The notes beneath the pieces were generated by a model, which was not told where the DNA came from, did no database searches, and saw only the letters and a list, made by a program, of their open reading frames with translations. A stretch of 64,000 nt of DNA. Source: Clostridia bacterium. Lineage in GTDB: Bacteria > Bacillota > Clostridia > Acetivibrionales > STF1-152. Position 1 is the first letter of the stretch, and every line of letters begins with the position of its first letter. Made by a program: the position numbers and the translations under genes. Below, in pieces: positions 36,268 through 52,335 of this stretch. The stretch covers positions 27,313 through 91,312 of the forward strand of contig JANQLN010000127.1 in NCBI GenBank assembly GCA_028280575.1. The letters run 5' to 3'.

Positions 36268-36607
36268 GGGACTCACTCCTTTTTTGCTCTTACCGGAATA
36301 ATCCTGGTAATTTTATTACACATATTTTGATTTATACGCCATGTATGAAACACGGTGAAGCTGGCCGGATAACAGTTAAAATCTTTTCACACAATTATTT
36401 ATGCTCGATTCCAGATGCTGATCCTTTATGCTGCCGCCGGGTAAATTTTACTTCATAATCCCAAGCATTATGACATTTTAAATCCACTAAAACCTCTGTG
36501 GTATTTCAAAGGCCATAATGCAAGGATTAAAGTCGTTTCATATAGAAGGTGCATGGTTTTGAAATAAACATTATTCCAAAACATGTTATTGCCGTCAATG
36601 AAATATT

Positions 36608-36660
36608 CCGGCACTTACTTGTTCAGTCTTTTCTTTCACATTTATGAAAGTAAGTGCCGG
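36608..36660 (-). terminator. Possible terminator hairpin downstream of the vWA gene
   Basis: The 11-bp stem ccggcacttac/gtaagtgccgg has a 31-nt loop. A shorter hairpin cctgcg…cgcagg lies closer to the stop. There is no strong U-tract. Confidence 0.3.
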
Positions 36661-36733: not shown

Positions 36734-39172
36734 CTAGTTTATATCTATTTCCGGATCCAATACCGTAATAGTTTTCGTGCCGTATATTTCCTTGCCGTCT
36801 TTCGTTTGCGCCCTTGCATTTACTATGGCAGAGCCAATTTCTTTTGCGGTAATGGCTCCTGTTGCACTGTCAACTTCCAGGACAGCTTCATCGGAGGAAG
36901 TCCATACCCATGGCGTCAATTCAATGTCAATTCCTGCAGGCTCCAAATCAACGGTCAATTCAGCGCTTTTCCACAACTCAAGCGTATCGTTTCCGTTTAT
37001 TACTATATTTACAGCCTTTACATTACAGGAATCTGAATATCTGCCCAGGAATTCTCCTTCTATCTGGCCGCCAGAGCTTATTTTGATTTCAAAAGAGGCA
37101 AAGCCGGCAATATCATAATTATTGCTTTCATCCGGATCGCCCATTGAAGCTATAAGGGGTACTGTTATTACAAATGACCCGTTATTGTTATTTATAAGCT
37201 CACTCATAACTGCTCCCGCATTATCGGCAACAGCCGGTTCGCTTGAAACTGTGTCACCTATTTTTATATTGTCACCGGAGCCGTAAATAATATTGTTCCG
37301 TAAAGTGTCATACCCGCTTCCCCCCAGGGAAATAGGCTGGTATACACCCTTTCCGCCGCTGCCGTCCTTTGACAGTACTATTTTTTCGCCAACGGCAAAG
37401 TCATCGTCTTCCAGAACCAAAGGCCTGACACCCATAATTCCGCTTACGGCATTCATATAAGTTGCCGTAATAGATGCTTCTCCGGGGCTTTCGGCTTTTA
37501 TCACACCAGACCCGTCAACGGTAACTATGGAATCCATACTTGATGTCCAGCTGAAGCTGCTCGATTCTCTTTCGGGAATGGTAACGGCATTTAGCTCGTA
37601 TTCCTCGCCGACCATCAATATGAGTTCATCAGGCAAGCCCGTAACTCCGTCTATACCGTCATATACATTTACGGTACATAATCCCGGAGCTCCCTTATAG
37701 TCTGAATCTTTAGGAGCGGCCTCAATATAAGCGTTCCCTGTCTCCAATGCTTTTACCCTGACCGACGAAACACCCGTGGATTCATCATAATCCGTTGATT
37801 CAATCTTTAATATACCTTCATTGGAAGAGGTCCATACAACATCTTTTTCATCCGCATTATCAGGCTGTACCTCAGCGGTTATATCAAACATCTGGCCTTT
37901 CTTTACATTCAAATATTGAGGCTCTACCACAAGGCTTGTTACAGGCTGTTTAACAACAACGGTTATTTCATCTTCAATGACAGCATCCTTTTCAAATTCA
38001 AAGGGGTCAGTATAAGAAACAGCCAGCTCATCAAGATTAAATACGCCCTTATTTTCATATTCAACGCTTATCTTGCCGTTCCAAGGAGTTACGGAATACT
38101 TTCCTGTAGATTCATTTCTTACAAGGGCCATATTTTCAATTTCTCCCGTTACCCTGTATGAACCGCCTTCAAGCACTTCAAGGTCAAATCCCTCTGGCAC
38201 ATCCTTAACCTTTACGCCTTCAGGGAATGTTTGTTCAAATTCCACATGCTTAATGGGGAAGCTGGATATAATCTGGTTTTTTATCTGGTTATTGTAAATA
38301 TCGTTTATATCCACAGATGATGTAGCCACATAGTAGTTGTTCCCGTTTTCAACCTCTGCCGCGCCGCAGGCCAGGGCAATGTTCTGAAGCTCATTGGATG
38401 TTCCCGTAGTAAATCCTATAATAAAGGGTGTAATGCTGTCGCCAGCTATCATTTTCCCTATTTCTACGGCATAATCGGTAGCCCTTTCTTTGTTATAGTA
38501 AAAATATCTGCCCCTTCCGCTGTTTGTTCTAAAAGCGGAAGTCGAATTTTTTTCAATAGTTGTGTAATAGTTAGGCTCTCCGTCAGTCATTATGATTATA
38601 TACTGTGCAGCCTCGCTGTCGTCATCCAGCATCCAGTAGCCCCTGCGCATCCCGTCACCGATATTGGTTGATCCGCCTTCGTCAATACCATTTACATATT
38701 CAATCAGATCCTCAACATCATCTTCATCCTTCATGTCCTTAAGGCCTGTGGGCCTGCCTGCCCTTCCAAAATACTCAACTATGCCTATCTTTGCCTTTTT
38801 ACCCTTGAAATTATTGATAAAGTTTACGGCACACTCCTTAACAACATCCATCCTGCTTTTGTTGCCTTCAAGCTTATTTTCCATACTTCCCGAACTATCA
38901 ATTACCAATACTATTTCCTTTTCTATCAGGTATTTCTCCTGAATTATTTCAGGCCGGATCTCAAATTCATCACCATGAATTGTGTAGCTTATATCCTGGA
39001 AATCTCCCACCAGCAGTGAGCTCTTATCCGGCTCCAAAACCCTTTTAACCCTCATATAATCATCAGACCTGTAATCCTCAATAGTACCGCTTAAACCAAA
39101 ACTGGCAGTATAAAAAAGATTAAACAGCAGTGATATAACTAAAACCAATGTCAAATATGATTTGACTTTCAT
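36734..39172 (-). CDS. Secreted von Willebrand factor A (vWA) domain protein with multiple bacterial Ig-like (Big_2) domains
   Basis: 812 aa with a Sec signal peptide and MIDAS motif DSSGS, plus downstream GGSTNIGDG and MTDGEPN. It has at least three Big_2-like repeats (…VVWTSSNEGILKIES…, …FSWTSSMDSIVTVDGSGVIKA…, …WVWTSSDEAVLEVDSATGAITA…). I saw no LPXTG, SLH or TM anchor. Confidence 0.85.
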   Translation of the reverse strand: MKVKSYLTLVLVISLLFNLFYTASFGLSGTIEDYRSDDYMRVKRVLEPDKSSLLVGDFQDISYTIHGDEFEIRPEIIQEKYLIEKEIVLVIDSSGSMENKLEGNKSRMDVVKECAVNFINNFKGKKAKIGIVEYFGRAGRPTGLKDMKDEDDVEDLIEYVNGIDEGGSTNIGDGMRRGYWMLDDDSEAAQYIIIMTDGEPNYYTTIEKNSTSAFRTNSGRGRYFYYNKERATDYAVEIGKMIAGDSITPFIIGFTTGTSNELQNIALACGAAEVENGNNYYVATSSVDINDIYNNQIKNQIISSFPIKHVEFEQTFPEGVKVKDVPEGFDLEVLEGGSYRVTGEIENMALVRNESTGKYSVTPWNGKISVEYENKGVFNLDELAVSYTDPFEFEKDAVIEDEITVVVKQPVTSLVVEPQYLNVKKGQMFDITAEVQPDNADEKDVVWTSSNEGILKIESTDYDESTGVSSVRVKALETGNAYIEAAPKDSDYKGAPGLCTVNVYDGIDGVTGLPDELILMVGEEYELNAVTIPERESSSFSWTSSMDSIVTVDGSGVIKAESPGEASITATYMNAVSGIMGVRPLVLEDDDFAVGEKIVLSKDGSGGKGVYQPISLGGSGYDTLRNNIIYGSGDNIKIGDTVSSEPAVADNAGAVMSELINNNNGSFVITVPLIASMGDPDESNNYDIAGFASFEIKISSGGQIEGEFLGRYSDSCNVKAVNIVINGNDTLELWKSAELTVDLEPAGIDIELTPWVWTSSDEAVLEVDSATGAITAKEIGSAIVNARAQTKDGKEIYGTKTITVLDPEIDIN

Positions 39173-39236
39173 AACTAACCCTCCTAAAATCCTTATTTGG
39201 CCAATTTTATATTAAAGACCATCCTTATGCTAAAAT

Positions 39237-40544
39237 TCAATGCAGCTTTTTACTTTCATTCAAAGTTATCCCGCTGATTTTCAACCTCCCTTCATTGCCG
39301 GCATCGCCGGAAAGAGTAACATTATAATTAAATCTGCATGTGCTTTCCACTCCTTTTATTGTTCCATCCTTTGTCATTACTTCTGTCTCAAATATAACAA
39401 AATATTTCTTTTTATTTTGTGTGTATGACAGGCAAGGTATTATTTCCAGCTTGCCGTATTTATCACTGCTAAAGCTTAACATATCTATCTGCAGGGGCAT
39501 TGAATCGTAGTCAAACCTTTCCTTGTATTCGTTTGTTATTTCCATAAGGTCGGAAAACCTTTTTTCCTCATCCATTTCAATTGTCTGGTCCAAAAATCCG
39601 CTAAATTCCAGCTGATCCTTTTCCCAGCAGGGATACATCAGGAGCATCCTTTTCCTGTCAAGGCTTTTAAGCCCGGTGAAAAAATCCAGGACCAGCTCCA
39701 TTTCCCTCTCATATACAATTCCATCTTCCTTGTTTACGTATTCATTGCTGCCCTCTCTTTTGTCAAAATTAATATACGGCAGAGCTTGTGCAAAATCATT
39801 GTTGAAAAGCAGCAGCCTGTCCTTAAGGGTTGAATGTGTATTTGCTTCCTTTACAGTTACAAGCTTGTAGATGCCGTCGATTTTCTCCAGCTCCACCTCA
39901 TAATTGAGGAGCATTCTGATGCGGTCCTCAACAATTTCTTCCTCTTCAGGTTCTTCCGGTCCTGCAGGCCTTTCCCCGTCCTCCGGCTCTTCAATTCGTA
40001 TGTATATTCCATGCTCGTCTTGTGTAAATTGACTTTCAAAGGCACCTGCAGGTATGCATTTGCCCAGTGCTTCGACCCTGACGGAATAATACACCGAGTC
40101 ATTGCTCTTTCCTAAAAAATCTGCGTCTATATTGGGCATTTCATCTTCCATATCCTTGTATTCCTTCATTTCATAGTCAATAACCGTCAAGCCGTTTATT
40201 TCAAAATACCTGGGAAAATGAATGCCTATTTCGGTATTGCCTTCTGCCAATTCCAGGGTTTTTTCCGAAATGAAATCCCTTATCCATGACGGAACATTTC
40301 CCATAGCAGTATATAAGCCATATTCTTCAATAGGAACCGAATACAGGCTTGAAAAATAATCATGTATCAGCTTTTTTATCCTGTTTTTTTCTTCATTTGA
40401 TATGACCTGTGGAATATTAACAACGGATTCCCCTGCATCTGCCGGTGGTTTACTTTCGCTTTCCTTCCCCGGACCGCAGCCTGCTGTTAAAAATAGAGCT
40501 GCTGCCAATATTGCCGCTGTCATCGTATTTCTAATACCCTTCAT
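39237..40544 (-). CDS. Lipoprotein of unknown function
   Basis: 435 aa with lipobox LTAGC, acidic tract PEEPEEEEIVED, and RBS GAGGTG. I recognise no family. Confidence 0.7.
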   Translation of the reverse strand: MKGIRNTMTAAILAAALFLTAGCGPGKESESKPPADAGESVVNIPQVISNEEKNRIKKLIHDYFSSLYSVPIEEYGLYTAMGNVPSWIRDFISEKTLELAEGNTEIGIHFPRYFEINGLTVIDYEMKEYKDMEDEMPNIDADFLGKSNDSVYYSVRVEALGKCIPAGAFESQFTQDEHGIYIRIEEPEDGERPAGPEEPEEEEIVEDRIRMLLNYEVELEKIDGIYKLVTVKEANTHSTLKDRLLLFNNDFAQALPYINFDKREGSNEYVNKEDGIVYEREMELVLDFFTGLKSLDRKRMLLMYPCWEKDQLEFSGFLDQTIEMDEEKRFSDLMEITNEYKERFDYDSMPLQIDMLSFSSDKYGKLEIIPCLSYTQNKKKYFVIFETEVMTKDGTIKGVESTCRFNYNVTLSGDAGNEGRLKISGITLNESKKLH

Positions 40545-40556
40545 ATTTTCACCTCA

Positions 40557-42890
40557 TTAAAAAATCGAATATAAATCCAGTCCCTGGCCCAAGAATATAT
40601 CCAATAATATTTCCCTGCCTGTCTCAGGGTCTGCGTCAGGGAAATGTATCCCCGCTTCCCCGCTGCTTATTTGAATTGCAGCATATCCGCCGCTGTCCAA
40701 GACACCCAGGTTTGAGCCGTCTTCCCTGATCCTTGGAGCCCTGTGGGCATATTTTATCCCGCCTATTTCAACATCTTCCGCCGCAGAGCCTGCCACGTAC
40801 CCGGGACCCGGGTCATAACCCCTTCCTGCGGCCACTATGGCGCCGTTTACAATTGCACCGTTCCTTAAAACCACCTTTCCCGTAGTAAAAATAATTCCAT
40901 TAAAAACCGTTCCGTTTAATTCAAGTATTTTATCAGGGTCCGTATTTATGACAAGAAAGTATTTATCCAAGGCCCATGGGTTATTTGCTATATCATTGTA
41001 CGGATATGCAGCATCACTTAGGTTTCCGCTTCCCGCTTCCAGGACATATGGGCTGCCCGAAAGCGCCAGGTTGCCAAGGGCGGTCATTATGGTACTGAAG
41101 GTTTCCGTCGACCTGTGCTCAATGACATCGGAAGCACTTGATTTTGAAGGATCATAGGTATGCCTTGAAACAAAGACATTGGCCATATCCAGCAAGCCCG
41201 GCTTTAACAGATTGTTAAGAATTCCCGGTATGTCCCAGCAGTACCCCGCATCCCATTCAAAGGAATCATCCATGTACCCGTTCCAGAATCCTTTCCACGT
41301 GCCCATGCCCAGAGGGGGGTCAATATTGTCAAGTACATAATTATCAGTAAGCAGTTTTGCTCTGCCCAATTCCGATAAATCCTCATCGGACTTTGATATG
41401 AAATACATCCTGTCGTTGGAAGCAATCTCATAATTGCAGTACCCTTGTATCTTTTCCGGCACCGGTCTGTCAAACATATTTGTATTATTTGTCCCCGCCA
41501 GCCTGGCCATATCAATACTGTTCATCCAGCTTTCAATATTTGCCTGTACATCGGCGGGATTCACGCTCCATGGCCGGGTATTCCATACCTGGAACAAATT
41601 ACTATAACCATAAGCTCCACTGTCATATCCCCCGCTGATTATCCAATCCCTGTAAAGACCGGTTAAATCAATAGGACACAGCTTATATAAAGGGGCATCA
41701 TTGTACATGGCTATTGAAGCATCCTCTATCTCATACAAAACATCGCCGCTGTCAGTCTCAACCCTGAAGGTGCTGCCATTTATCATAACGGAGCCGTTTA
41801 TTACAATCCTTGATCTTTTAGCCATGCTTGAATTCGACCAATGTACTATGGCACTGTTTACTATGGCGCTGGAATTGTCATGGTGCACGGCATCCGTACC
41901 GTCCGACAATCCAAAATAGCTGCCGTTTATCGCTATAACGGAATCTTCACCGTTTATTTCAAGGTCGTCAAATGTATACGCATTCCTGTATACGGCTATC
42001 CGGTTATTCCTGCCGAATACATGTACTCCCTGTGCAACCGCGTCCCTGTATACATATATGGAGCTGTTGTCCTGTGTCTGGTTGTACTCCCCGGTCCTTA
42101 TAAAGCTCCTGCTGTATGCATTGCCGTTTATGTACATTGTTGAATTGTCCTTTGCATATATCCCGCCGTAATAATACTGTTCTGGCTGGGCGAGTACTTC
42201 TGGAGAGCTGCCGTAAACATGCATGTCGCCGGTGACATTCAACGTAGAGCTGCCGCTGGCCATAAAATCCCCCACCGTATAAACAGGTCCTAAGAGCCTG
42301 AAAGCTTTTGGAAAGCTCACCTCGAACTCTTTTTGTGAAAATACCTTTTTGTCTCCCGAAACATATGGCTTTACTATATATTTCGAATCAGCAAAAACGC
42401 CGATATTTATTTTTATTTTTGAAGGGCTTTCAGCAGGATTGTAGCTATGGCCCATATACTTGATATCAATACTGACATCAGCAGTATTTTCAGTATTGTT
42501 GGCAACATTGATACCGTCAAAAGCACCGTTTATATTGAGGGCGCCGATGTAGGGCCTTAAAACTTCGTTTACCATGCTTCTGGCAAACAGCTCGTTATCC
42601 CCCGTATATGTTATCCCATTAGAGGCTGCGAGTGTTTCATTGGAGCATATGCTTCCAAGACTGTCGAAACACTTTTGTATTGCACTTTCCGCAGCATAAT
42701 AAGAGTAGTCCATATGCCCGTTGGTCTTGCTCGCCCTGAAAACCTGCATAGACGTATCCAGCAAAACCCCGGCCAGCAGGATGACCGATGCCATTAATAC
42801 AATTACAAACAGCATTGTGGAACCTTTTTTATTATTTATATTACCTAGCATAAGCTCTTTTACACCACCCAACGTTCTCAAAAACATCAT
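40557..42890 (-). CDS. Large pilin-like protein with PilX/GspK-type N-terminal hydrophobic helix lacking Glu5
   Basis: 777 aa. NKKG/STMLFVIVLMASVILLAGVLLDT resembles a prepilin/PilX_N segment but has Phe, not Glu, at +5. The remainder is Asn/Gly/Tyr-rich with repeated NG-x-hydrophobic strands (e.g. LNGTVFNGIIFTTGKVVLRNGAIVNGAIVAAG). The start is ambiguous (42890 or 42851). Confidence 0.6.
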   Translation of the reverse strand: MMFLRTLGGVKELMLGNINNKKGSTMLFVIVLMASVILLAGVLLDTSMQVFRASKTNGHMDYSYYAAESAIQKCFDSLGSICSNETLAASNGITYTGDNELFARSMVNEVLRPYIGALNINGAFDGINVANNTENTADVSIDIKYMGHSYNPAESPSKIKINIGVFADSKYIVKPYVSGDKKVFSQKEFEVSFPKAFRLLGPVYTVGDFMASGSSTLNVTGDMHVYGSSPEVLAQPEQYYYGGIYAKDNSTMYINGNAYSRSFIRTGEYNQTQDNSSIYVYRDAVAQGVHVFGRNNRIAVYRNAYTFDDLEINGEDSVIAINGSYFGLSDGTDAVHHDNSSAIVNSAIVHWSNSSMAKRSRIVINGSVMINGSTFRVETDSGDVLYEIEDASIAMYNDAPLYKLCPIDLTGLYRDWIISGGYDSGAYGYSNLFQVWNTRPWSVNPADVQANIESWMNSIDMARLAGTNNTNMFDRPVPEKIQGYCNYEIASNDRMYFISKSDEDLSELGRAKLLTDNYVLDNIDPPLGMGTWKGFWNGYMDDSFEWDAGYCWDIPGILNNLLKPGLLDMANVFVSRHTYDPSKSSASDVIEHRSTETFSTIMTALGNLALSGSPYVLEAGSGNLSDAAYPYNDIANNPWALDKYFLVINTDPDKILELNGTVFNGIIFTTGKVVLRNGAIVNGAIVAAGRGYDPGPGYVAGSAAEDVEIGGIKYAHRAPRIREDGSNLGVLDSGGYAAIQISSGEAGIHFPDADPETGREILLDIFLGQGLDLYSIF

Positions 42891-42926
42891 AAACCTGCCG
42901 GGTTAATCGATAATCCGGCTTATGGC

Positions 42927-43394
42927 CTAAGGAATAAGCCTGTTTATGTTAATCCTGAGCTTCTGGAATACTTCCCCATCCATTTTTTTAACGGTAATCA
43001 GGTATTCACAGGTATCGGAAAATCCGTGGATCTCTCCAAAATCCTTGTCCCTTACCGCGTCAAACTTAAACCTTTTGCTTATTTCTCCGATTTCGTTCAC
43101 TATCTTAAGGTCCGAACCGTTTATGTCGTCCTTCAATACCACGTCCCCTCCGCCGTAAGACGGTATCGTATTTCCTGCCCCGTATTTAACGGAAGCAATG
43201 ACATTTTCCTTTATTGTCCGCATGACAGAATTAAGCTCCTGCCTTTCCCCTGTCATTCTAATCAGTATTGCGGAATTTAAAAACGAAGTTGTCAGCGGAA
43301 GTGATATGATTCCCAGTATTGTGATTGATACCAATACTTCTATCAAGCTGCTTCCCTTATTGTTTTTTCTAATAATTTTTTGCATAAACCTCAC
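42927..43394 (-). CDS. Minor type IV pilin (prepilin-type N-terminal cleavage/methylation domain)
   Basis: …KNNKG/SSLIEVLVSITILGIISLP has Gly-1, Glu+5 and a hydrophobic helix. The alternative start is ATG at 43385. Confidence 0.8.
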   Translation of the reverse strand: MRFMQKIIRKNNKGSSLIEVLVSITILGIISLPLTTSFLNSAILIRMTGERQELNSVMRTIKENVIASVKYGAGNTIPSYGGGDVVLKDDINGSDLKIVNEIGEISKRFKFDAVRDKDFGEIHGFSDTCEYLITVKKMDGEVFQKLRININRLIP

Positions 43395-43473
43395 CAGCCT
43401 CCCGTAAGCCTTTCAGGCTTAAAGGAATAAAAAGTTATTCGCCGGGAACCTAAAGATTCCTTAATTTTCCCAT

Positions 43474-44625
43474 CTAGAATATATCCAGCTTTTCCAGGGC
43501 GCTCCGGCCATGTATCTCCGCACCGTTCCTGTCAAAAACCTTTGCCCGTTTCTGCCTGTCGTTCAATATTACCCTGATTCTATTTGAAGAGCCGTTATTG
43601 ATTTTAATATTCAATCTGATATTTTCATTCTCTTTGATGTCCGGCATATCAATATCAACCAGTATGGTTATTTCTTCGGAAACAATGTCCGCCGCCAGGC
43701 TTTCCCTGTTATTTGAAGCATCAGCGGCATTTAAGGTATACGACGTACCCGTAAATCCCAGGTCGATGTCAACCGTATTGTCCGTCTTAATCCTCATAAC
43801 CTTGCTGTCCGTGTCCCTGCAAAGAATCTGAAGGTTTTCGCCGCCGGAAAGGTAGCTTTTACCTTTTATTACTATGTCTGCGCTTTTCATGGTTTCATCA
43901 TCGAATGATTGCAGATTGCGGCCGTCCATGACGCTTCCCTTGCCGTCCATATAGCTTCCGAGCTTGTAGCTGCTGTACATAAACATCCTGTCCGATTCGC
44001 GGAGATTCATAGAATACAGGCAGATTATTATATTGATATCATATTTGCTTTCTATAGTATCTTCCCCATCTTCCACGTTTTCAGCCTGCCTGTTTTCACT
44101 TAAGGGCTTGACTACAAATTTTTTAATCCTTGTTTTTGTTGCGGCGCCTTCAAGGTATTTAACCAGGCGCATTGCGTCGCCGTATGTCATATGGGCATTA
44201 AACTCTATTTTTGTTTCGTAGTATTTAACGGGGCTTTTGCCGCTTGCGGAGCCGCCGTCCTTATTCTGCAATCCCGTATATTTTTCCTGGGGACTGCTTA
44301 CATTCAGCTCTGTAATATTGTTTTTAAGGTACTTCCCGAGCTTGTTTACATACTCAAGATTGTCAACAAGAAATGAGCTGTTCATCAAATATTGATCAAC
44401 CCTTTCATTCATGGCATTCAGCTTGTGTAATTCAGCTATATTTGTACTGATATTCAAAACCTCCTTTTCCAGAGAAGCTTTTTTTGCCTCCGCTTCCGAG
44501 ATTTTATCCTTTATATCTGAAATCCTGGGGATTACAGGTACCCAAATAAACTTGTAAAATACCAGGGCGTATACAATAACAGCCAGCAAAGCCAAAAGCT
44601 TGGCCTCCTTCTTTTTAAAGGACAT
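43474..44625 (-). CDS. pilO: PilO-like pilus assembly protein with long C-terminal extension
   Basis: 383 aa with an N-terminal TM (LLALLAVIVYALVFYKFIW), a coiled coil, and a PilO-like ~120-aa region. About 190 extra residues follow. RBS AGGAGG. It lies directly after pilN. Confidence 0.6.
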   Translation of the reverse strand: MSFKKKEAKLLALLAVIVYALVFYKFIWVPVIPRISDIKDKISEAEAKKASLEKEVLNISTNIAELHKLNAMNERVDQYLMNSSFLVDNLEYVNKLGKYLKNNITELNVSSPQEKYTGLQNKDGGSASGKSPVKYYETKIEFNAHMTYGDAMRLVKYLEGAATKTRIKKFVVKPLSENRQAENVEDGEDTIESKYDINIIICLYSMNLRESDRMFMYSSYKLGSYMDGKGSVMDGRNLQSFDDETMKSADIVIKGKSYLSGGENLQILCRDTDSKVMRIKTDNTVDIDLGFTGTSYTLNAADASNNRESLAADIVSEEITILVDIDMPDIKENENIRLNIKINNGSSNRIRVILNDRQKRAKVFDRNGAEIHGRSALEKLDIF

Positions 44626-44629
44626 ATTG

Positions 44630-45184
44630 TCAACCTCCTATTCCTATTACATCAAAGGTTAAAATGTATTCCCCTGCTTCATTAAGCTTAAAACCGGCAC
44701 TTGAATCCGACAGCTCAAAAAGCGCAAGCCTGTCCATATTCATTACAAACTGTGCCACCCGGGATATATCTTCAACGGTAAGTGATACCGTAAGGGAATC
44801 GTTGTCATATTCTATTCCGTTTACGGAACAGCCATAGGGTGTACTGCTTTTTAGTGAATTAATAATGGAATTTACGGGACCGCCCTGGTTATCAATATGC
44901 TGGATAACTTCCCTTTTTTCCCCCAGCAGCCCAAACTCTGCCGAAATCTTTTTATTCAGCAATTTGACTTCATCATATTTTTCTGATTTAATATCCTCTT
45001 CAATGCTGGCAAGGCTGCCTTCAAGCGTTTTTACATAGGCTGAGGGAATAGCCAGGCCAGCTCCCATGAGGCCTGCAACAACCAGCACCAGAAAAGCTAT
45101 ACCTATTTTCTTGCCGGTGCTGCTCTTGGCTTCACCGACAGGGTCAATCCTCTCCTCATCTATCAGCAGGTTAATATCCTTCAT
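44630..45184 (-). CDS. pilN: PilN-like pilus assembly protein
   Basis: 184 aa with N-terminal MKDINLL (the conserved INLL PilN motif), a single TM, a periplasmic-type domain, and RBS GGGAGG. Confidence 0.7.
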   Translation of the reverse strand: MKDINLLIDEERIDPVGEAKSSTGKKIGIAFLVLVVAGLMGAGLAIPSAYVKTLEGSLASIEEDIKSEKYDEVKLLNKKISAEFGLLGEKREVIQHIDNQGGPVNSIINSLKSSTPYGCSVNGIEYDNDSLTVSLTVEDISRVAQFVMNMDRLALFELSDSSAGFKLNEAGEYILTFDVIGIGG

Positions 45185-45198
45185 TTAGGTTCCTCCCA

Positions 45199-45774
45199 CT
45201 ATGAAATAAATTCCTTGTATTTAACGGAAAATTCCGTTATTACAGGTTTTTCAATATTCCTGTTCCTGTGTATTCTTGTATTGGTTGCTTCCGGTTTTAC
45301 CCCCAGAATCACCTTGTCGCCAATTTTCTCAAATCTTGAAGGCATATATTTTTTTGCAGGCTCCGGCGGCGCAGCCGGTACACTGACAACAGCGGTATCC
45401 AGCCCTCCCAGTACTTCCTCGAAGCTTCCCGGAGCACCCGGAAGGTCGGTTTTAACATACAGCCTCTCATCCTCAATCTTCCATGTTTTTTCCTTGCCCG
45501 TATCATCGTAGTCGTGATACCTCAGCACCAGTATGCTCCTTGAGTTGTCGGGCTCATATACAACCTTATAGTATGCGGCCTGCTCAATATCCTTTCTTAT
45601 GCGCATAACCACGCCGTCCACCTTGTCATACTGGTACAAAAACTTCCTGTAGGTATTGCATGTGCGGATGCCGTCAACAAATATCATGTACACTATGGGC
45701 ATGAGGACGGCAATTATGCCCATTACAACTACAACCTCCAGTATTCCCATACCTTTTCTGTTTGAAAGCTTCAT
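45199..45774 (-). CDS. Minor type IV pilin (prepilin-type N-terminal domain)
   Basis: MKLSNRKG/MGILEVVVVMGIIAVLMP has Gly-1 and Glu+5. I prefer the start at 45774 (AGGTGG 7 nt upstream). Confidence 0.8.
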   Translation of the reverse strand: MKLSNRKGMGILEVVVVMGIIAVLMPIVYMIFVDGIRTCNTYRKFLYQYDKVDGVVMRIRKDIEQAAYYKVVYEPDNSRSILVLRYHDYDDTGKEKTWKIEDERLYVKTDLPGAPGSFEEVLGGLDTAVVSVPAAPPEPAKKYMPSRFEKIGDKVILGVKPEATNTRIHRNRNIEKPVITEFSVKYKEFIS

Positions 45775-45863
45775 AAACATACCACCTGAAAAATACCGCG
45801 CCCCTGCCCCTTTAGAAGCAGGGGACGGCGAATTATTATGCTAATTGGTATTATGTACAAGCG

Positions 45864-46409
45864 TCATGGGTGAATAGTTACAATACAAAGGGAAGTCTCA
45901 GTAGCAGGTACGACCTTAACAGTTTGAAGGTCAGGATATATATCAATAGCCCATCCCAAATTCTTATTATGCTGTGGCTCGTAAGCCTGTACATTTACAG
46001 CTGCATCTTTAGCCTCATCAGGATCCTTTCTTGACAGTACCGGCCCGTAAACTCTATCGGTAACGCCATCATTAATAACATCCATCAAAGCTTGAATAAG
46101 AACCGTGGATGCAGTTCCATCTGAAACACCACTAATATTATCCAAACCCCAATCATCTGAATCCGTACAATATGTCAGCATTGCCTTTTCCAGGTTTACC
46201 GCCATCTGCTCGTCGGCACTCTTTTTGCTGTTTGCAAGCACTCCTCCGAACATGTTGAATGCAATTGCGGCAAGTACTCCCATTATTGCTATGACTACAA
46301 GAAGCTCAACCAGTGAAAATCCGTTGTCTTTTTTCAGCTTTCTTAAAAAGGACTGTACCCCCTTCCTTTCAACAAACCTTTTTTTAACATCTTTCATAAT
46401 AGCAACCAT
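45864..46409 (-). CDS. pilA: Major type IV pilin with unusually long leader peptide
   Basis: …KKDNG/FSLVELLVVIAIMGVLAAIAFNMF is a canonical class III signal peptide. It has a 30-residue leader, a 151-aa mature protein with two Cys (TYCTD, SLCIV), and RBS GAAAGGAG. Confidence 0.85.
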   Translation of the reverse strand: MVAIMKDVKKRFVERKGVQSFLRKLKKDNGFSLVELLVVIAIMGVLAAIAFNMFGGVLANSKKSADEQMAVNLEKAMLTYCTDSDDWGLDNISGVSDGTASTVLIQALMDVINDGVTDRVYGPVLSRKDPDEAKDAAVNVQAYEPQHNKNLGWAIDIYPDLQTVKVVPATETSLCIVTIHP

Positions 46410-46460
46410 TTCGATACTCCTTTCTTTTTTTTATATAATCAACCCTTTCCGGGGTAATTA

Positions 46461-47672
46461 TCAAAACGACAGGTTCTGGTATATGCTGTACATTGGCAGC
46501 AATACGCTTATGACTATGAAGCCTATAACAACAGCCAGTACGCAGATGACAAGGGGTTCGATAAATGTGGTGAGCTTCTGCAGGGAGGCCTGCATTTCCT
46601 CCTCGTAAAAATCTGCCGATTTTTTCAGGGTATATTCAAGATTACCCGACTCCTCGCCTATCCTGACCATGGAAACAATCATAGGGGAAAAATATTTCAT
46701 TTCACTCAGCGGCCCGGTCAGGCCCTTCCCCTTCTTGATTTCATCAATTACACCCGTAATTCTTTTCTCAATGACCGCATTACCTATGACCTTCTGCACT
46801 ATCTCCAGCGATTTTATGAGCTGCACCCCGCTGTTTATAAGGGTTTCCATGGTCCTTGAAAACCTTGAGGTAATTATATTTTCAGTAACACCCTTTAGTA
46901 CGGGAAGCTTTATGGCCAGCTCGCCGAAAAATAATTTCCCGCTTTCGGAGCGCTTGTACATTTTGCCTCCTGTAAAAATTCCTATGATGGAAAAGACAAT
47001 CAGCCACCAGTAGCTCTTGAAAAATTCGCTCACAACTATCAATATCCTGGTTGTTGCAGGCATATCAACCCCGAATCCTGTCAATATATCCATAAATGAC
47101 GGTACTACCCTGGCCAGGAGAATTATTATAACGGCTACGGCTACCACGCACACTATGACGGGGTAAGTCATCGCTCCCTTTATTTTCTGGTTGAGCTTGT
47201 ACTCCCTTTCAAAATGCTCCGCCATCCTTGCAAACACCAGGTCAAGCTGCCCGCTGACTTCACCGGCTTCCACCATATTGACAAGTATGTCGGGAAACAC
47301 GGACGAATTCCCCATGGATTTTGAGAGCTGGATTCCCTTCTGGATATCCTCATAAATATCCGTCAGGCATTCCTGAAGGGTAGGATTTTCAGTCTGCTGC
47401 CGCATTACATCCATTGCAAGCCCTATGGGCACGCCTGCCGACAGGACTATTGCAAACTGCCTGCAGAAAATCGCCAGGTCTTTGGTCTTAACCTTCTTTT
47501 TAAATATCCCGATTGTACTGATGTCGGACAGGGCATTCTTTTCCCATATCTCAAGCACAGTCAGCCCCTTGGCGGAAATTATCTTTTCCAGCTCGTCCCG
47601 TTTTTTGATTTTTGCCTGTCCTGAAAAAACCTTGCCTGCTTCATTTTTAACCTTATAAGCGTATAAAGGCAT
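46461..47672 (-). CDS. pilC: Type IV pilus platform protein PilC (GspF family)
   Basis: 403 aa with two T2SSF repeats and three TM segments, the typical PilC/GspF architecture. RBS GGAGG. Confidence 0.95.
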   Translation of the reverse strand: MPLYAYKVKNEAGKVFSGQAKIKKRDELEKIISAKGLTVLEIWEKNALSDISTIGIFKKKVKTKDLAIFCRQFAIVLSAGVPIGLAMDVMRQQTENPTLQECLTDIYEDIQKGIQLSKSMGNSSVFPDILVNMVEAGEVSGQLDLVFARMAEHFEREYKLNQKIKGAMTYPVIVCVVAVAVIIILLARVVPSFMDILTGFGVDMPATTRILIVVSEFFKSYWWLIVFSIIGIFTGGKMYKRSESGKLFFGELAIKLPVLKGVTENIITSRFSRTMETLINSGVQLIKSLEIVQKVIGNAVIEKRITGVIDEIKKGKGLTGPLSEMKYFSPMIVSMVRIGEESGNLEYTLKKSADFYEEEMQASLQKLTTFIEPLVICVLAVVIGFIVISVLLPMYSIYQNLSF

Positions 47673-47692
47673 ATTTCAATCCTCCATATAAA

Positions 47693-48799
47693 TCATAATG
47701 CGGTGCCAAGTACGTTGACCAGATAGTTTATGCGTTCGGTGTCAAGCTTTTCCGTAAATTCAATGCCGTCAATATGCAGAAGGTCCACCGGATAAATAGG
47801 TATTTTCATCTTTTCTTCAAAATACTCGCTTATCCCCGTCATCTGGGAGCCTCCCCCAATAAGGTATATCCTGCTTATCTGTTCGCCTGCACACCTTGTT
47901 ATATAAAAGTCCAGGCATGTTTTGACATTCCTGATAATTTCATCTATGACCTTCTTCGCACAATTGCTGCAGTCCCATTCCATTTCGTTGTTGATATCTT
48001 TTTTAAAGGATATGCCGTACATCTTCTTGTAGCGTTCCGCACTGTCCTCCTTGCCCTTTTCAATGCTCATTTCCCTTATGATTTCAGTGTCTATATTACT
48101 GCTTCCCAGAAGGACGACCCTGTTGAACTCGGGTATCTTGTTTTTTAATATGTTGACTATTGTTGTCTCCGAACCCAGGTCAATTACGGATATTGTATTG
48201 AGGGATTTCAAATACTTCAATTTCTGCTTTTTAGCCAGGCTCTCATGCTCAATCCATGTGATGTTTTTCTTGAAAAATTTTGACACGCTGTTTGCGGGTA
48301 TATCAACTGAAATAGGCTTTAAATCAAGCTCTGCCAGCATTTCAAGATAACTGTTGATTATTTTTTTCGGAACCGCGGTTACAAAAATCTTGACCTTTGG
48401 CTTACCGTCGTTTATGGTATCCAGGATTTTATAATCAACCTTGTGCTCCTCAACATTGACCGGCAGGCATTCTGTTATTTCCCGTTTTACCTTGTCGTCC
48501 ATTTTGCTCTCGCTTACCTTGTCAACCATTATGATCCGGCTGATTATATTCGTACCGGATATAACAATCTTTGCACTCCTGGCCGTAAGGAAGTTCTCCT
48601 TTATAACCTTTTTTATCTCAGCCGTAACCATTTTCCTGTTGGTTATGGCCCCGTTCTTGATACACCCTTTAGGGGTATCCCCAAGTCCATAATTAACTAT
48701 TACCAGATTATCATTGTTCTTTTTTCTTACCTGTGCAATTTTTATATATCTGAAGCCCACATCAATTGTAAGAAAATCATTAAGAAAAAAAATACTCAT
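47693..48799 (-). CDS. pilM: PilM, actin-like pilus assembly ATPase
   Basis: 368 aa. IDVGFRYIKIAQV, VIDLGSETT and YLIGGGSQ match the actin/HSP70-fold phosphate-binding motifs of PilM/FtsA. Confidence 0.85.
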   Translation of the reverse strand: MSIFFLNDFLTIDVGFRYIKIAQVRKKNNDNLVIVNYGLGDTPKGCIKNGAITNRKMVTAEIKKVIKENFLTARSAKIVISGTNIISRIIMVDKVSESKMDDKVKREITECLPVNVEEHKVDYKILDTINDGKPKVKIFVTAVPKKIINSYLEMLAELDLKPISVDIPANSVSKFFKKNITWIEHESLAKKQKLKYLKSLNTISVIDLGSETTIVNILKNKIPEFNRVVLLGSSNIDTEIIREMSIEKGKEDSAERYKKMYGISFKKDINNEMEWDCSNCAKKVIDEIIRNVKTCLDFYITRCAGEQISRIYLIGGGSQMTGISEYFEEKMKIPIYPVDLLHIDGIEFTEKLDTERINYLVNVLGTAL

Positions 48800-48875
48800 C
48801 TCACCAACCCCCCAATATTATTATTTTCCATCAGTTATTTTAAACATTTTTGTTCTTCCTTTTCCTTTTTCCAAT

Positions 48876-49940
48876 CTATCCTGTTTTCATCATGGCAAGC
48901 TTTTCAAAGTTGTCAGGGTCGCAAGAATACTTGTAGGCACTTTCATAATCAATTACTCCTTCTTTATAGAGCTTTGCAATATTTCCGTCCATGGAATGCA
49001 TACCATACTGGAAGCCTGTGTGTATACTCGTATTGATTTGTACTATCCTGTTTTCGCGTATCAGGTTGGATATTGCAGATGTCATTACCATAACTTCAGT
49101 AGCCAGTGCTCTGCCTACCGTATTTTTCTTTTTTATCAGCTGCTGTGATATTATACCCTGGAGTACGGTAGAAAGCTGGCTCCTCACCTGCGTCTGCTGA
49201 TGGGGGGGGAATACGTCAATTATCCTGTCTATGGTCTTTGCAGATCCTACCGTATGCAGGGTCGACAAAACCAGATGGCCTGTTTCAGCCGCCGTAAGTG
49301 CTGTAGCTATTGTTTCCTGGTCCCTCATTTCACCAATGAGTATTACATCCGGATCCTCCCTTAAAGTTGCTCTCAAGGCATCCGCATAGTTGGAGGTGTC
49401 TTCTCCTATTTCCCTCTGGTTTATAATGCTCCTGTTATGAGTGTGTATAAACTCTACAGGGTCTTCAATAGTAATAATGTGACACCTTTTATTATTGTTT
49501 ATATAATTTATCATTGAAGCAAGCGTGGTAGACTTGCCGCTTCCCGTAGGCCCCGTTATAAGTATGAGCCCCCTTTGCTTTTCCGCCAGCTTGCATGCTA
49601 TGGAAGGTATGCCAAGCTCATCAATATCCGGAATCTTTGTGGGAATAACCCTTATGGCTATGGCAAGGGTTGACATTTGCCTGTATATGTTAATCCTGAA
49701 CCTGGCAATACCGGGCAGGGCATATGACAGGTCAACCTGGCCCTTTTCTTCAAGAATATCCCTCATTTCCTCCCTTATTAATTCTCCAACCAGCTCTTCA
49801 CAATCTTCTGAAGTGAGAATCGATTCCTCAAAGTATACCAGCTCACCATTTCTCCTGATTACAGGCGGTATTCCAACACATATATGTAAATCGGATGCAC
49901 TGTATGAAATTGACTTTTCCAAAAGCTCCCTCAACTTCAT
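48876..49940 (-). CDS. pilT: PilT twitching-motility retraction ATPase
   Basis: ASDLHI, Walker A GPTGSGKST, Asp box, Walker B ILIGEMRD, His box TGHLVLSTLHT. The start MKLRELLEK at 49940 is preceded by GGGGGAGG. Confidence 0.95.
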   Translation of the reverse strand: MKLRELLEKSISYSASDLHICVGIPPVIRRNGELVYFEESILTSEDCEELVGELIREEMRDILEEKGQVDLSYALPGIARFRINIYRQMSTLAIAIRVIPTKIPDIDELGIPSIACKLAEKQRGLILITGPTGSGKSTTLASMINYINNNKRCHIITIEDPVEFIHTHNRSIINQREIGEDTSNYADALRATLREDPDVILIGEMRDQETIATALTAAETGHLVLSTLHTVGSAKTIDRIIDVFPPHQQTQVRSQLSTVLQGIISQQLIKKKNTVGRALATEVMVMTSAISNLIRENRIVQINTSIHTGFQYGMHSMDGNIAKLYKEGVIDYESAYKYSCDPDNFEKLAMMKTG

Positions 49941-49962
49941 TTTTAAGCCTCCCCCTGCGGTT

Positions 49963-52218
49963 TTAATCTCTTGCATATGTAATCCTCAACATTTCATCAA
50001 TTGATGTTATCCCGGTTGTTACAAGCTGTATACAGTTTTGCTGCAATGTTTTCATCCCTTTTTTCAAAGCCGCTTCCTTTAACAGGCCCGCCGGTTTATT
50101 GTGGGCAATGAGCTCCATCAGTTCACTGTCCACAGTCATAATTTCATATACGGCAATCCGTCCTTTGTATCCCGTATTGCTGCACTTGTCACAGCCTTTG
50201 GGCCTGAACAGCTTTACATTGTCCCCGGGTTCAAGCCTTAAAATGCCTTTCTCACTCTCTGTAGGCTCGTACTCTTCCTTGCAGTCACTGCAAAATCTCC
50301 TCACCAGCCTTTGTGCTATTACTCCTACTATTGAAGATGCAAGCATATATGGCTCTATTCCCATGTCTATAACTCTTGTGATTGAACTGGCGGCATCATT
50401 TGTATGAAGGGTACTCAGGACAAGATGTCCTGTAATAGCGGCTCTGGTGGCTATCTCTGCCGTTTCGGGATCTCTTATCTCTCCCACCATTATTATATCC
50501 GGGTCCTGTCTCAAAAAGGCCCTTAATGCAACGGCAAATGTCATTCCCGCCTTTACATTGACCTGCACCTGGTTTATTCCCTCTATGGTATTTTCAACCG
50601 GGTCTTCAACAGTCATTATATTTATTTCGGGACTGCACAGCTCCTTAAGTGCAGTGTAAAGCGTGGTGGACTTACCGCTTCCCGTGGGGCCTGTTACCAG
50701 GACAATCCCGTGGGGATTGGCTAATATTTTGTCAAATTTTTTCAAATCATCTTCAAAAAACCCAAGCTCTTCCTTCTTGACATTGAAGCCTTCCTTGTCT
50801 GCAAGCCTTATTACAGCCTTTTCGCCAAAAACTGCAGGCAGTATGGATACACGCATATCAAAGCTGCGCGAATCAATATGCAGGGAAATCCTTCCGTCCT
50901 GGGGTATCCTTTTTTCAGCAATGTTCAAACCGCTTAAAATTTTTATCCTGGCTATCAGTGCGGGAAGAATCTTTATGTCATTTCTCATTACCTCAACAAG
51001 CTGCCCGTCGATTCTGTTCCTTACCACAACAACATCCTCATGGGGCTCTATATGTATGTCACTGGCCTTGCTTGAGGCCGCCTTGTTGAAAATTAGCTTT
51101 ACCATCTTTACAATAGGTGCATTTTGTACATCACTTATATCTACCGAGTCCTCAATATCCTGGGTAATTTCAACCTTGATTTCTTCATGGACCTTCTTCA
51201 TTTCCTCATCAAAGTCTATTACCTCCGCCACGGGCTTTGCTTTTTTCTTTGCCGTACTCTTCTTCTGTTTCTCTTCCTCTTTTTTCCTTCCTTCAAAAAA
51301 CTTATCTATGTAAGCAGTTATATCCTTGCCGTCCGCCAGCAGCGGAATAATTTCAAATCCTGTGGCAAGCCTTAAATCGTCTATGGCAAAAATATTGCTT
51401 GAATCACTCATGGCAACCTTTAATGTAATGCCTTCTACTTCAATCGGCAAAACAGTATGCCGCCTGGCAAGCCTCTCACCGATTTTTTCCAGCATTTTAT
51501 CGTTTATCTTTTCCTCTTTTACATCTGCATAGTTAACTCCCATCTTTTTAAGCGCTTCATGATAAGCATTTTTATCTATATAGCCTTGAGAAATAAGGAT
51601 TTCGCCAATGCTCCCTCCATTTTCCTTTTGAAGCTTCAAAGCCAGCTGGAACTGGCCGCTGGTGATAATTTCTTTTCCTGTCAGGTACTTTCCAATCTTG
51701 CCTTCAATCATATTATTGGAAGCTTCCCCGGCTTCTTCCTCTGCTTCTTCAACTTTCTCTTCCGGTAATTCCTGTTTTTCTTCCTTGACATAATTTTGCT
51801 CAATTAATCTTTCTATTTCAATATGGTCCGCATATACGGCCTTTACTTTTAATGATGTAGAAACCTGTATGTCCTCCAGAACATATACATCGGTGGGATC
51901 CTTCATTGCAATTATTATGGTATCGTCATCTATATCAAGGGGGAATATGCAGTGCTTTCTCGCAAGCTCTGCGGGCAAAGGCTCAAGGACATCAGGACCA
52001 AGCTTTGCTATTTTGCTCAAATCCCTGTATTCCAGCCCCATTTTTTTTGCCCGGGCAAATAAAATGTCATTTTTTTGTACAAATTTCATCTCTTCGAGAA
52101 TCTGCTGCAATCCTTTGTTGGTTTTGCGCTGAATTTCCCAGGCTTCCTTCAGGTGTTCAATTTTTAATGCTCCTGTTTCCACAAGCACTTCATCCAGATT
52201 TTCGTCTACAATTCCCAT
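49963..52218 (-). CDS. pilB: PilB/GspE-family pilus extension ATPase with duplicated N-terminal T2SSE_N (MshEN-like) domain
   Basis: 751 aa with Walker A GPTGSGKST, IMVGEIRD, TGHLVLSTLHTN, and the tetracysteine CSDC…CDKC. It has two N-domains (res ~5-140 and ~172-310), each starting with an LGxxLxxxGxIxxxxLxxALxxQ-like motif. Confidence 0.95.
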   Translation of the reverse strand: MGIVDENLDEVLVETGALKIEHLKEAWEIQRKTNKGLQQILEEMKFVQKNDILFARAKKMGLEYRDLSKIAKLGPDVLEPLPAELARKHCIFPLDIDDDTIIIAMKDPTDVYVLEDIQVSTSLKVKAVYADHIEIERLIEQNYVKEEKQELPEEKVEEAEEEAGEASNNMIEGKIGKYLTGKEIITSGQFQLALKLQKENGGSIGEILISQGYIDKNAYHEALKKMGVNYADVKEEKINDKMLEKIGERLARRHTVLPIEVEGITLKVAMSDSSNIFAIDDLRLATGFEIIPLLADGKDITAYIDKFFEGRKKEEEKQKKSTAKKKAKPVAEVIDFDEEMKKVHEEIKVEITQDIEDSVDISDVQNAPIVKMVKLIFNKAASSKASDIHIEPHEDVVVVRNRIDGQLVEVMRNDIKILPALIARIKILSGLNIAEKRIPQDGRISLHIDSRSFDMRVSILPAVFGEKAVIRLADKEGFNVKKEELGFFEDDLKKFDKILANPHGIVLVTGPTGSGKSTTLYTALKELCSPEINIMTVEDPVENTIEGINQVQVNVKAGMTFAVALRAFLRQDPDIIMVGEIRDPETAEIATRAAITGHLVLSTLHTNDAASSITRVIDMGIEPYMLASSIVGVIAQRLVRRFCSDCKEEYEPTESEKGILRLEPGDNVKLFRPKGCDKCSNTGYKGRIAVYEIMTVDSELMELIAHNKPAGLLKEAALKKGMKTLQQNCIQLVTTGITSIDEMLRITYARD

Positions 52219-52282
52219 TTTTGTACTCCTAACGTTTTATTCGTCATAGAATAATTATATTGTATTCCCATGATGTTGTTAA

Positions 52283-52335
52283 TAGACTGTGCGTCTCATA
52301 TATTAGAATATTTTATCAGATTTTGGTTGAAACCA
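52283..52335 (-). promoter_or_regulatory. Candidate promoter of the pilus operon (extended -10)
   Basis: The minus strand reads TTGGTT…(15 nt)…TGATAAAAT about 90 nt upstream of pilB. The match is weak. Confidence 0.25.

Follow-up and report, generated by a model that had tools for sequence, protein, structure and literature searches.

We propose a model for the twelve co-oriented genes at positions 36,734 to 52,218 on the minus strand of the window, that is, the whole 64-kb stretch of contig JANQLN010000127.1 from a Clostridia bacterium that was analysed here. As judged from the proteins that it encodes, the locus is a type IV pilus (T4P) operon of the type IVa family, and its gene order is the rule within a group of plant-fibre-degrading clostridia. 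In the model, which we hold to be rather probable, the locus is the lineage-typical operon of cellulolytic Ruminiclostridium, Acetivibrio and Pseudobacteroides clostridia for a retractile adhesive type IVa pilus that has a tip pilin and adhesins recruited by a C-terminal tag. The pilus itself is ordinary. The pair formed by a giant pilin-like protein (gene 10, X777) and a lipoprotein (gene 11, L435), together with a slot for tagged adhesins that is filled in this window by gene 12 (V812), matches no curated model and no paper in the literature that was searched.

Gene order and its conservation

All twelve minus-strand open reading frames (ORFs) that an earlier note on this DNA had listed are present with exactly its coordinates (Table 1). 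From pilB to gene 12 they are separated by −14, 76, 20, 51, 83, 14, 4, 79, 36, 12 and 64 base pairs (bp), the first value reflecting that the start of pilT overlaps the end of pilB by 14 nucleotides (nt). A Shine-Dalgarno sequence, which the note had ascribed to every gene, is present in purine-rich form at 11 of the 12 listed starts, the exception being gene 10, where only 'AGG' lies upstream of the listed ATG at 42890. The GC content is about 0.41–0.44 in the operon region and 0.31–0.46 in the remaining window.

The order of the genes had been described as atypical. When a profile of gene 10 was scanned against one genome per GTDB species, 51 loci were recovered, and the proteins of the window were then searched against all ORFs of these loci. 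The order pilB-pilT-pilM-pilC-pilA-pilin-pilN-pilO-pilin-gene 10-gene 11 is found in all 51, allowing for loss of pilM and for contig ends, so the description as atypical does not stand for this lineage: 19 loci are complete, 8 are complete except for pilM, 21 are cut by a contig end yet consistent, and 3 deviate by one undetected gene or by an extra adjacent cluster. The named hosts are Ruminiclostridium cellobioparum, R. hungatei, Acetivibrio clariflavus, A. mesophilus, A. straminisolvens, Pseudobacteroides cellulosolvens and a Thermoclostridium metagenome-assembled genome (MAG), with other MAGs besides, and the two closest relatives examined also have the twelfth gene, coding for a protein with a VWA domain. 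Nor is the presence of pilT inside the assembly operon an oddity, since it was reported for Gram-positive pil operons by Imam et al. in 2011 (PMC3244431) and is seen within the large C. difficile locus (PMC6958937). It had also been asked whether the same order might be common and already annotated in characterised loci. It is indeed common, but no experimentally characterised locus of this type was found, and a search of the open-access literature gave no paper with an experimental characterisation of this operon type.

Several variations on the order are noted. In Acetivibrio-type loci (L001, L016, L019, L022, L028, L029, L035, L044, L046, L050 and L056, in the labelling of the related loci used here) pilM is missing between pilT and pilC, with all else in order. 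In Ruminiclostridium-type loci (L003, L009–L012, L014, L015, L017, L021 and L033) the prepilin peptidase gene pilD, recognised by A24_N_bact plus Peptidase_A24, lies within the tail, following either gene 11 or the slot gene. The position of pilD thus varies in the clade, the gene being absent from the Acetivibrio-type loci and from the window. In one MAG (L020:16588-20428) a second pilB-pilT-pilC set lies directly downstream of the tagged slot protein, so that two pilus gene sets are adjacent. In A. straminisolvens JCM 21531 (L056) two ORFs stand in place of one for each of pilC, the PilO-like gene and gene 10, which suggests draft-sequencing frameshifts or operon decay.

The core pilus machine

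The nine assignments that had been made for the first nine genes (pilB, pilT, pilM, pilC, pilA, a minor pilin, pilN, a pilO-like gene and a minor pilin) hold by hidden Markov model (HMM) profiles and motifs. For PilB, besides the match listed in Table 1, the top model is TIGR02538 with 661 bits, narrowly under its cutoff of 675.65, the NCBIfam model NF053729 for the MshE-type motif that binds cyclic diguanylate (c-di-GMP) gives 62.5 bits against a cutoff of 38, and a CxxC...CxxC tetracysteine is visible in the sequence. In the PilM-PilN-PilO set, PilM scores above its cutoff, PilN matches weakly (E=0.004), with precomputed weak PilN matches also among its orthologues, and the PilO-like protein is recognised through its orthologues, of which 21 of 30 match T2SSM/GspM (best 6e-9) and 6 of 30 match PilO.

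The PilO-like protein is enlarged, consisting of an N-terminal transmembrane segment, a coiled coil and a PilO-like half, and then a conserved C-terminal extension of about 190 residues; a profile search against PDB sequences gave nothing significant for it. Large PilO proteins have been described in monoderms (PMC6916266). The extension (about 43474–44050, minus strand) carries a clade-wide motif resembling NNSGKKxNIxLxDxxxRVxIxDRNGxxI...EKVxI and has no match in Pfam or PDB. It is a candidate for a wall-spanning domain or for a receptor of the tag described below.

The three prepilins with the G/φxxxE motif of class III signal peptides (φ, hydrophobic residue) are the sole ones in the window. 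We take PilA to be the major pilin from its position and from the conserved hairpin downstream of its gene. Every defining part of a type IVa pilus was found, PilN only as a weak match, except for PilD in cis.

The giant pilin-like protein and the lipoprotein

The remainder of the operon, about 6 kb of coding sequence, had been regarded as an unassigned tail of three large genes without known function. It is indeed attached to the locus, and none of the three has a pilus annotation in Pfam. Nevertheless, the tail is not wholly unassigned, because gene 10 is a giant pilin of GspK/PilX type and gene 12 matches VWA and Big_2.

The true start of gene 10 is probably the internal ATG at 42851 (Met14), giving MLGNINNKKG/STMLF, since in the alignment of 53 homologues the leader is only about 10 residues long. 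The N-terminus of the family reads N-x-K-G/S-x-L-x-x-V, with Gly at position −1 in 51 of 53 members; position +5 is T, L, I, S, M or A, and it is Glu in none of the 53. Such a leader is characteristic of subunits of GspK/PilX type, which in the established models start the filament and finish at its tip. A word-indexed search gave 111 homologues, at most 55% identical to the window protein, some of which bear the NCBI name 'PilX family'.

Structural models of the proteins of genes 10 and 11 were judged by confidence scores, secondary-structure strings and Foldseek tables. The AlphaFold2 model of gene 10, made with 53 sequences, has a predicted local distance difference test score (pLDDT) of 90 and a predicted TM-score (pTM) of 0.82, and it comprises an N-terminal helix of 59 residues (24–82), strands at 136–192 (pLDDT mostly about 79–96) and then a large beta-rich body. 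The long first helix followed by a beta-sheet, as in pilins, is thus present as read from the secondary-structure string only. No Foldseek match at E≤0.001 was obtained in PDB or BFVD. An assignment to the tāpirins was rejected, as 4WA0 and 6N2C were matched only with E=0.14 and 0.35, probability 0.15 and 0.02, and a TM-score of at most 0.26. A relationship to phage tailspikes or beta-helices was rejected as well, and because BFVD gave nothing the body is called here beta-rich rather than a beta-helix. It is also noted that the extreme C-terminus of the gene 10 family is conserved (40557–40580, minus strand) as ...G-I/L-D-L-x-x-I-F, here GLDLYSIF, with a φ-D-φ core that resembles the tail of the adhesins.

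Gene 11 adjoins gene 10 wherever a locus extends far enough to show it, and in all loci its context is the T4P operon, with no gene set for type IV secretion or conjugation. An exhaustive HMMER search among 1.84 billion representatives gave 58 clusters for its family, as compared with 1–3 proteins returned by a word-indexed search. The model of the protein (pLDDT 88, pTM 0.81) shows two tandem domains, each a helix plus a curved sheet. The best Foldseek match is to the chains of 3UB1 (E=2e-6 to 8e-6, probability 0.99–1.0), with VirB8 and PrgL lower in the list. We take 3UB1 to be TcpC of the C. perfringens plasmid pCW3, the PDB title giving only 'Ntf2 like protein involved in plasmid conjugation'. 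The global TM-score between gene 11 and 3UB1 is only about 0.16–0.27, which is low because the orientation of the domains differs. A profile search against PDB gave no sequence similarity of gene 11 to PDB proteins.

The variable slot and the C-terminal tetrapeptide

Unlike the preceding eleven positions, the one after gene 11 varies between genomes, with pilD or a gene for an SLH-domain protein sometimes coming first. The slot holds VWA proteins in this window and in L004–L007, L013, L024, L030, L038–L042 and L049; DUF5057 proteins of 1,050–1,300 amino acids (aa) in Ruminiclostridium; PA14/GLEYA proteins in L020, L043 and L051; an SLH+CBM3 protein in L017 and L033; RCC1-propeller proteins in L018 and L041; and nothing in Acetivibrio, where the loci end at gene 11. 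All slot proteins are encoded in the same orientation as the operon, and each has a hydrophobic N-terminus like that of a signal peptide. It is noted that in L041 (3446-9016) an RCC1 beta-propeller protein with Cu_amine_oxidN1, lacking the tail motif, is followed by a tagged VWA protein, an arrangement loosely like PilY1 split over two genes.

In the window, the protein of gene 12 begins with MKVKSYLTLVLVISLLF..., a Sec-type leader without a G/xxxxE motif, so that it is not a modular pilin. Its VWA domain (residues 87–293) has an intact metal ion-dependent adhesion site (MIDAS; DxSxS...T...D), the residues of which, D92, S94, S96, T169 and D197, are invariant in 10 orthologues, while the VWA orthologues are only 23–29% identical. 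The second-best solved structure for this domain is the vWA pilin PilB of S. sanguinis (7B7P, E=5e-6). No C-terminal beta-propeller domain of the PilY1/PilC kind was found, the Pfam domains being only VWA, Big_2 and Ig-like.

Although the slot proteins belong to unrelated classes, almost all complete ones (VWA, DUF5057, PA14 and SLH+CBM3) end in IDIN, VDIN, ININ, IDVN, IDLN, ADIN or VDIQ. A census of C-termini with the pattern [IVLA][DN][IVL][NQ] was made over about 1 Mb around the T4P loci. All loci together contain 1,169 ORFs with a length of 100 aa or more. The pattern stands at the end of 30, and 28 of these 30 are slot proteins or gene-11 orthologues, the remaining two being one ClpP gene counted twice. 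In the window, the single such ORF out of 303 is gene 12. A tagged ORF is present in 19 of the 31 loci that have at least 4.5 kb of downstream sequence.

The tail is preceded by a Big_2-like domain in many proteins, by an unrelated domain in the SLH-then-VWA class and by another context in the CBM3 class. Several gene-11 orthologues have it behind a long linker of low complexity (...NSVDVQ), a tagged gene 11 being present in 8 genomes, and two Acetivibrio gene-11 orthologues have a related ...IDLK tail. Because the C-terminal contexts that precede the tail are of at least three unrelated kinds, it is not simply inherited with one domain. It also differs from known sorting signals (LPXTG, PEP-CTERM, GlyGly-CTERM and similar), as the tetrapeptide makes up the last four residues, with no transmembrane helix or basic tail after it. 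No NCBIfam model covers the tetrapeptide and no paper in the searched literature describes it.

Table 1. Genes, signals and neighbouring features of the pilus locus, in positions of the 64-kb window (aa, amino acids; slashes in leaders stand before the first residue of the mature prepilin)
Feature	Position	Strand	Basis or remark
Best sigma-70-like promoter match, TTAACA-17-TATAAT	52254..52282	−	11/12 matches, top site on strand, ~35 bp upstream of pilB; consensus match only
pilB, extension ATPase (751 aa), two N-terminal MshEN (c-di-GMP-binding type) domains	49963..52218	−	T2SSE 2e-136, 455 bits
pilT, retraction ATPase (366 aa)	48876..49976	−	TIGR01420 PilT/PilU 479.5 bits, cutoff 319.1
pilM, actin-like cytoplasmic assembly protein (368 aa)	47693..48799	−	PilM_2 3.6e-30; TIGR01175 137 bits, cutoff 133
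pilC, platform protein (403 aa)	46461..47672	−	T2SSF 7e-62 (207 bits), two repeats; PilC/GspF models ~1e-100
pilA, presumed major prepilin (181 aa), leader ...KKDNG/FSLVELLVV	45864..46409	−	N_methyl 2e-9; TIGR02532; G/xxxxE motif
GC-rich stem-loop and U-run directly after pilA	45789..45824	−	Region −33.7 kcal/mol, z=−3.2
Minor prepilin (193 aa), leader ...NRKG/MGILEVVVV	45199..45780	−	N_methyl E=0.001, below cutoff; G/xxxxE; position conserved in all loci
PilN-like bitopic protein (184 aa)	44630..45184	−	PF05137 E=0.004, below cutoff; position conserved across loci
Enlarged PilO/GspM-like protein (383 aa)	43474..44625	−	Weak alone; orthologue matches
Minor prepilin (155 aa), GTG start, leader ...NNKG/SSLIEVLVS	42927..43394	−	N_methyl 5.5e-7; weak ComGE-like match
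Gene 10 (X777), giant GspK/PilX-type pilin-like protein, ~764 aa	40557..42851	−	Listed ORF runs to 42890
Gene 11 (L435), lipoprotein, lipobox LTAGC, two tandem NTF2/VirB8-like domains	39237..40544	−	12-bp gap to gene 10
Gene 12 (V812), Sec-signal VWA + Big_2 surface protein	36734..39172	−	VWA 3e-16; Big_2 in 3 stretches
Codons for final I-D-I-N (φ-D-φ-N/Q tag) of gene 12	36737..36748	−	Same tail on slot proteins elsewhere
Long stem-loop then U-rich tract, 70–130 nt after gene 12	36600..36660	−	Region −45.1 kcal/mol, z=−3.8, 0/200 shuffles as stable
SLH-domain surface protein (329 aa)	35287..36276	−	SLH 2.6e-21; co-oriented, 457-bp gap after gene 12

Transcription signals and neighbouring genes

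The hairpin after pilA is a feature of the whole group. A strong hairpin is present there in 97% of the related loci, with a median best 45-nt free energy (ΔG) of −23.8 kcal/mol, whereas at the nine further junctions that were tested this holds for 0–33% of loci, with medians between −6.6 and −12.2 kcal/mol. The sequences of the hairpin after pilA are unrelated between loci. The stem-loop could be an attenuator, a terminator or a stabiliser of the transcript. In C. perfringens, terminators likewise follow the pilin genes pilA1 and pilA2 (PMC6958937).

It had been considered that transcription might end after the second minor pilin. No terminator is predicted there, the hairpin having −14 kcal/mol and z=−1.6, with a strong hairpin at that junction in 14% of the related loci. 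None is predicted between genes 11 and 12 either (hairpin z=+0.5), and the stem-loop after gene 12 is the likely terminator of the operon. In the leader of pilB (52100–52700) no Rfam family was matched at E≤1 and no c-di-GMP riboswitch was found; over the whole window, no Rfam family, with models for rRNA, riboswitches and tRNA included, reached its gathering threshold, this statement covering Rfam models only. For lack of an Rfam match, a regulatory RNA ahead of pilB or pilA, whether a c-di-GMP riboswitch or another, was therefore rejected.

Two neighbouring genes are co-oriented with the operon. The one upstream, a gene for a leucine-rich-repeat protein (52519–53715, minus strand) 300 bp from pilB, with an N-terminal KGKGKGKGKK tract and a transmembrane segment, has no counterpart beside any of the 51 related pilus loci, and for this reason it probably lies outside the system. 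The one downstream codes for the SLH-domain protein and is probably transcribed separately from the operon. In relatives, an SLH-domain gene stands directly after the VWA gene (L005 and L013) or directly before it (L024, L030, L038, L040, L042, L049 and L052), the matches among the related loci being mostly limited to the SLH repeats, and the SLH-domain neighbour may anchor the VWA protein to the wall. In one annotated relative (L005) there is a weak cohesin match too.

Discussion

It is useful to compare the operon with the systems that are already known. With the type IVa clusters of clostridia (C. perfringens and the large C. difficile locus) it has in common PilB, PilC, PilM, PilN, PilO and several prepilins, a hairpin or terminator downstream of the gene for the major pilin and the MshEN domains of c-di-GMP type on PilB, and with C. 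difficile also the pilT gene within the locus. In C. perfringens, the order is pilD-pilB2-pilC2-pilA2-pilM-pilN-pilO..., with pilT beside ftsA/ftsZ (PMC6958937). By contrast, pilT here comes directly after pilB, pilM stands before pilC, so that pilC and two pilin genes lie between it and the pilN and pilO genes, neither a pilD gene in the locus nor a c-di-GMP riboswitch is present, and the end is formed by the pilin of about 764 aa, the NTF2 lipoprotein and the tagged adhesin. A likeness is also seen to the T4P locus of Caldicellulosiruptor, which starts with pilB-pilT and has large non-pilin substrate-binding tāpirins directly downstream of the last pilin (bioRxiv 10.1101/614800): both have the pilB-pilT start and large proteins after the last pilin, and both belong to degraders of plant biomass. 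However, in Caldicellulosiruptor pilM-pilN-pilO are contiguous and pilD is included, and no likeness of gene 10 to the tāpirins could be detected.

The three last proteins have their own counterparts. Gene 10 resembles GspK, PilX and ComGG in having a prepilin-like leader in which Gly is at −1 and Glu is missing from +5, a long helix at the N-terminus and the final place among the pilin genes, but it is about three times larger, matches no family model and has a globular body without a structural match. Gene 11 resembles the TcpC/VirB8-like NTF2 proteins in having two tandem NTF2-like domains at the outer face of a Gram-positive membrane in connection with a trans-envelope machine, but its anchor is a lipid rather than a transmembrane helix and its context is a pilus rather than conjugation. 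As for gene 12, two likenesses can be drawn. It recalls the complex of PilY1 and minor pilins at the pilus tip in P. aeruginosa and M. xanthus, as the gene for a Sec-exported non-pilin VWA protein neighbours those of minor pilins, one of them E5-less, a tip-displayed adhesin is the logic proposed for both, and some relatives place a beta-propeller protein in the slot; the difference is that gene 12 has Big_2 and no propeller and that a lipoprotein gene is interposed. It also recalls the modular pilins of S. sanguinis, where a MIDAS-containing vWA adhesion module is likewise tied to a Gram-positive T4P. In S. sanguinis the vWA module of PilB (7B7P) is reportedly grafted onto a pilin with a class III signal peptide, and PilC is said to have a lectin module, whereas the VWA protein of gene 12 is led by an ordinary Sec signal, and its tag is a separate element at the C-terminus.

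Based on our model, the system would work as follows. By homology, PilB, with its two MshEN domains of c-di-GMP type, powers the extension of the pilus, which may be responsive to c-di-GMP, and PilT powers its retraction. Also by homology, PilC, PilM, PilN and the enlarged PilO form the membrane platform, with PilA as the presumed filament subunit, the transcript level of which may be raised over that of the downstream genes by the hairpin after pilA, with read-through supplying the latter. The two small pilins with Glu5 and gene 10 may then form a priming or tip complex, where gene 10 would enter first and so come to the distal tip, displaying its large novel beta-rich body. Outside the cytoplasm, gene 11 may serve as a scaffold or chaperone, either for the tip complex or for the crossing of the wall. 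Gene 12 would be one allele of a swappable adhesin slot: exported by Sec and binding its ligand through the MIDAS-VWA domain, it would be recruited to the pilus system by its C-terminal φ-D-φ-N tail and would act as a non-pilin adhesin in a role like that of PilY1. The physical joining of genes 10–12 to the pilus is putative, as it is drawn from sequences and predicted structures.

Several observations weigh against this model. For PilD, neither the catalytic motif nor a clade-specific PilD HMM at E≤10 gave any prepilin peptidase in the 64-kb window, so that PilD is presumably encoded elsewhere in the genome. For gene 10, there is no match to Pfam (PilX_N and T2SSK), to NCBIfam (ComGG included) or to PDB sequences. 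Moreover, 12 of the 31 loci with sufficient downstream sequence have no tagged protein, the Acetivibrio loci stopping at gene 11, from which it follows that the adhesin is dispensable for the machine. Finally, some tagged slot proteins carry an SLH domain of their own (L017), and an SLH gene accompanies the VWA gene, which suggests anchoring in the wall rather than a location at the pilus tip.

The main alternative, unlikely in our estimate but worth weighing, is that the locus encodes instead a Gram-positive machine resembling the type II secretion system (T2SS), or a short pseudopilus, which exports the large folded tagged proteins (gene 12 as well as the DUF5057, PA14 and CBM3 proteins of other slots) through the thick peptidoglycan, with the tail being a secretion or sorting signal and genes 10 and 11 the cargo-engaging tip and the dock. 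A short terminal motif on otherwise unrelated exported proteins does look like a sorting signal, the SLH-anchored members among the tagged proteins favour export, and in T2SSs the tip pilins of GspK type contact the substrates. Furthermore, peptidoglycan blocks folded proteins above about 25 kDa, and in C. perfringens the secretion of the 70-kDa VWA protein BsaC needs the pilin PilA3 (PMC11580942). Against this stands the presence of pilT and of a complete PilMNO set, which are hallmarks of true type IVa pili with retraction (PMC6916266). If the tail were a general secretion signal, it would be expected on dispersed substrates, while what is found is one tagged gene per locus, always adjacent, with none dispersed in the window or in the flanks (about 1 Mb), which weighs against export. 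In addition, gene-11 orthologues, which are lipid-anchored and hence non-secreted, bear the tail in 8 genomes.

It might also be that gene 12, perhaps together with gene 11, codes for an ordinary surface protein that merely neighbours the pilus genes, the tail then going back to a terminal Ig-like domain of common descent. In favour of this, the last domain is Big_2-like in many tagged proteins, but the tail is also found on unrelated last domains (the SLH-then-VWA and CBM3 classes) and on the linkers of gene 11. The content of the slot is variable and sometimes empty and the identity among the VWA orthologues is low (23–29%), both of which fit mere neighbourhood; on the other side, gene 11 stands beside gene 10 in every locus reaching there, and the tagged genes are always co-oriented and directly 3′ of the cassette, with no terminator between genes 11 and 12. 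We regard mere neighbourhood as quite improbable. Still far less probable is a competence (Com-type) pseudopilus for DNA uptake in place of an adhesive pilus, to which the weak ComGE-like matches of two pilins and the secondary ComGA and ComGB matches of the ATPase and the platform protein might point: the PilB, PilT and PilC models score far above the Com models, PilM, PilN, PilO and PilT are present, and no gene of comEA/comEC type was identified among the 12 genes or in their immediate flanks.

Beyond these readings, we put forward a tentative proposal, which may well turn out otherwise. It is possible that the φ-D-φ-N/Q tail is an undescribed recognition tag that couples interchangeable Sec-exported adhesins (VWA, PA14 lectin, CBM3 and DUF5057) to a Gram-positive type IV pilus, either by docking on gene 10 or gene 11 or as a label for transport across the wall that is driven by the pilus. 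In that case, gene 10 would stand for a tip pilin with a new fold.

With its conserved giant pilin of tip type, its obligatory NTF2 lipoprotein, its slot for the exchange of adhesins with different binding modules and the four-residue tail that these retain, the operon offers a compact and testable case for how T4P of cells with a single membrane get through a thick wall and how large proteins other than pilins are displayed or exported by them; type II secretion, too, is not known to have a defined linear cargo signal. Were the tag functional, chosen proteins could be loaded onto the system. Finally, we note that the slot modules CBM3, which is cellulose-binding, and PA14 are of carbohydrate-binding types and that the named hosts degrade fibre and are of relevance for the conversion of biomass. 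An attachment of these clostridia to plant material that is independent of the cellulosome may therefore find its explanation in this system.

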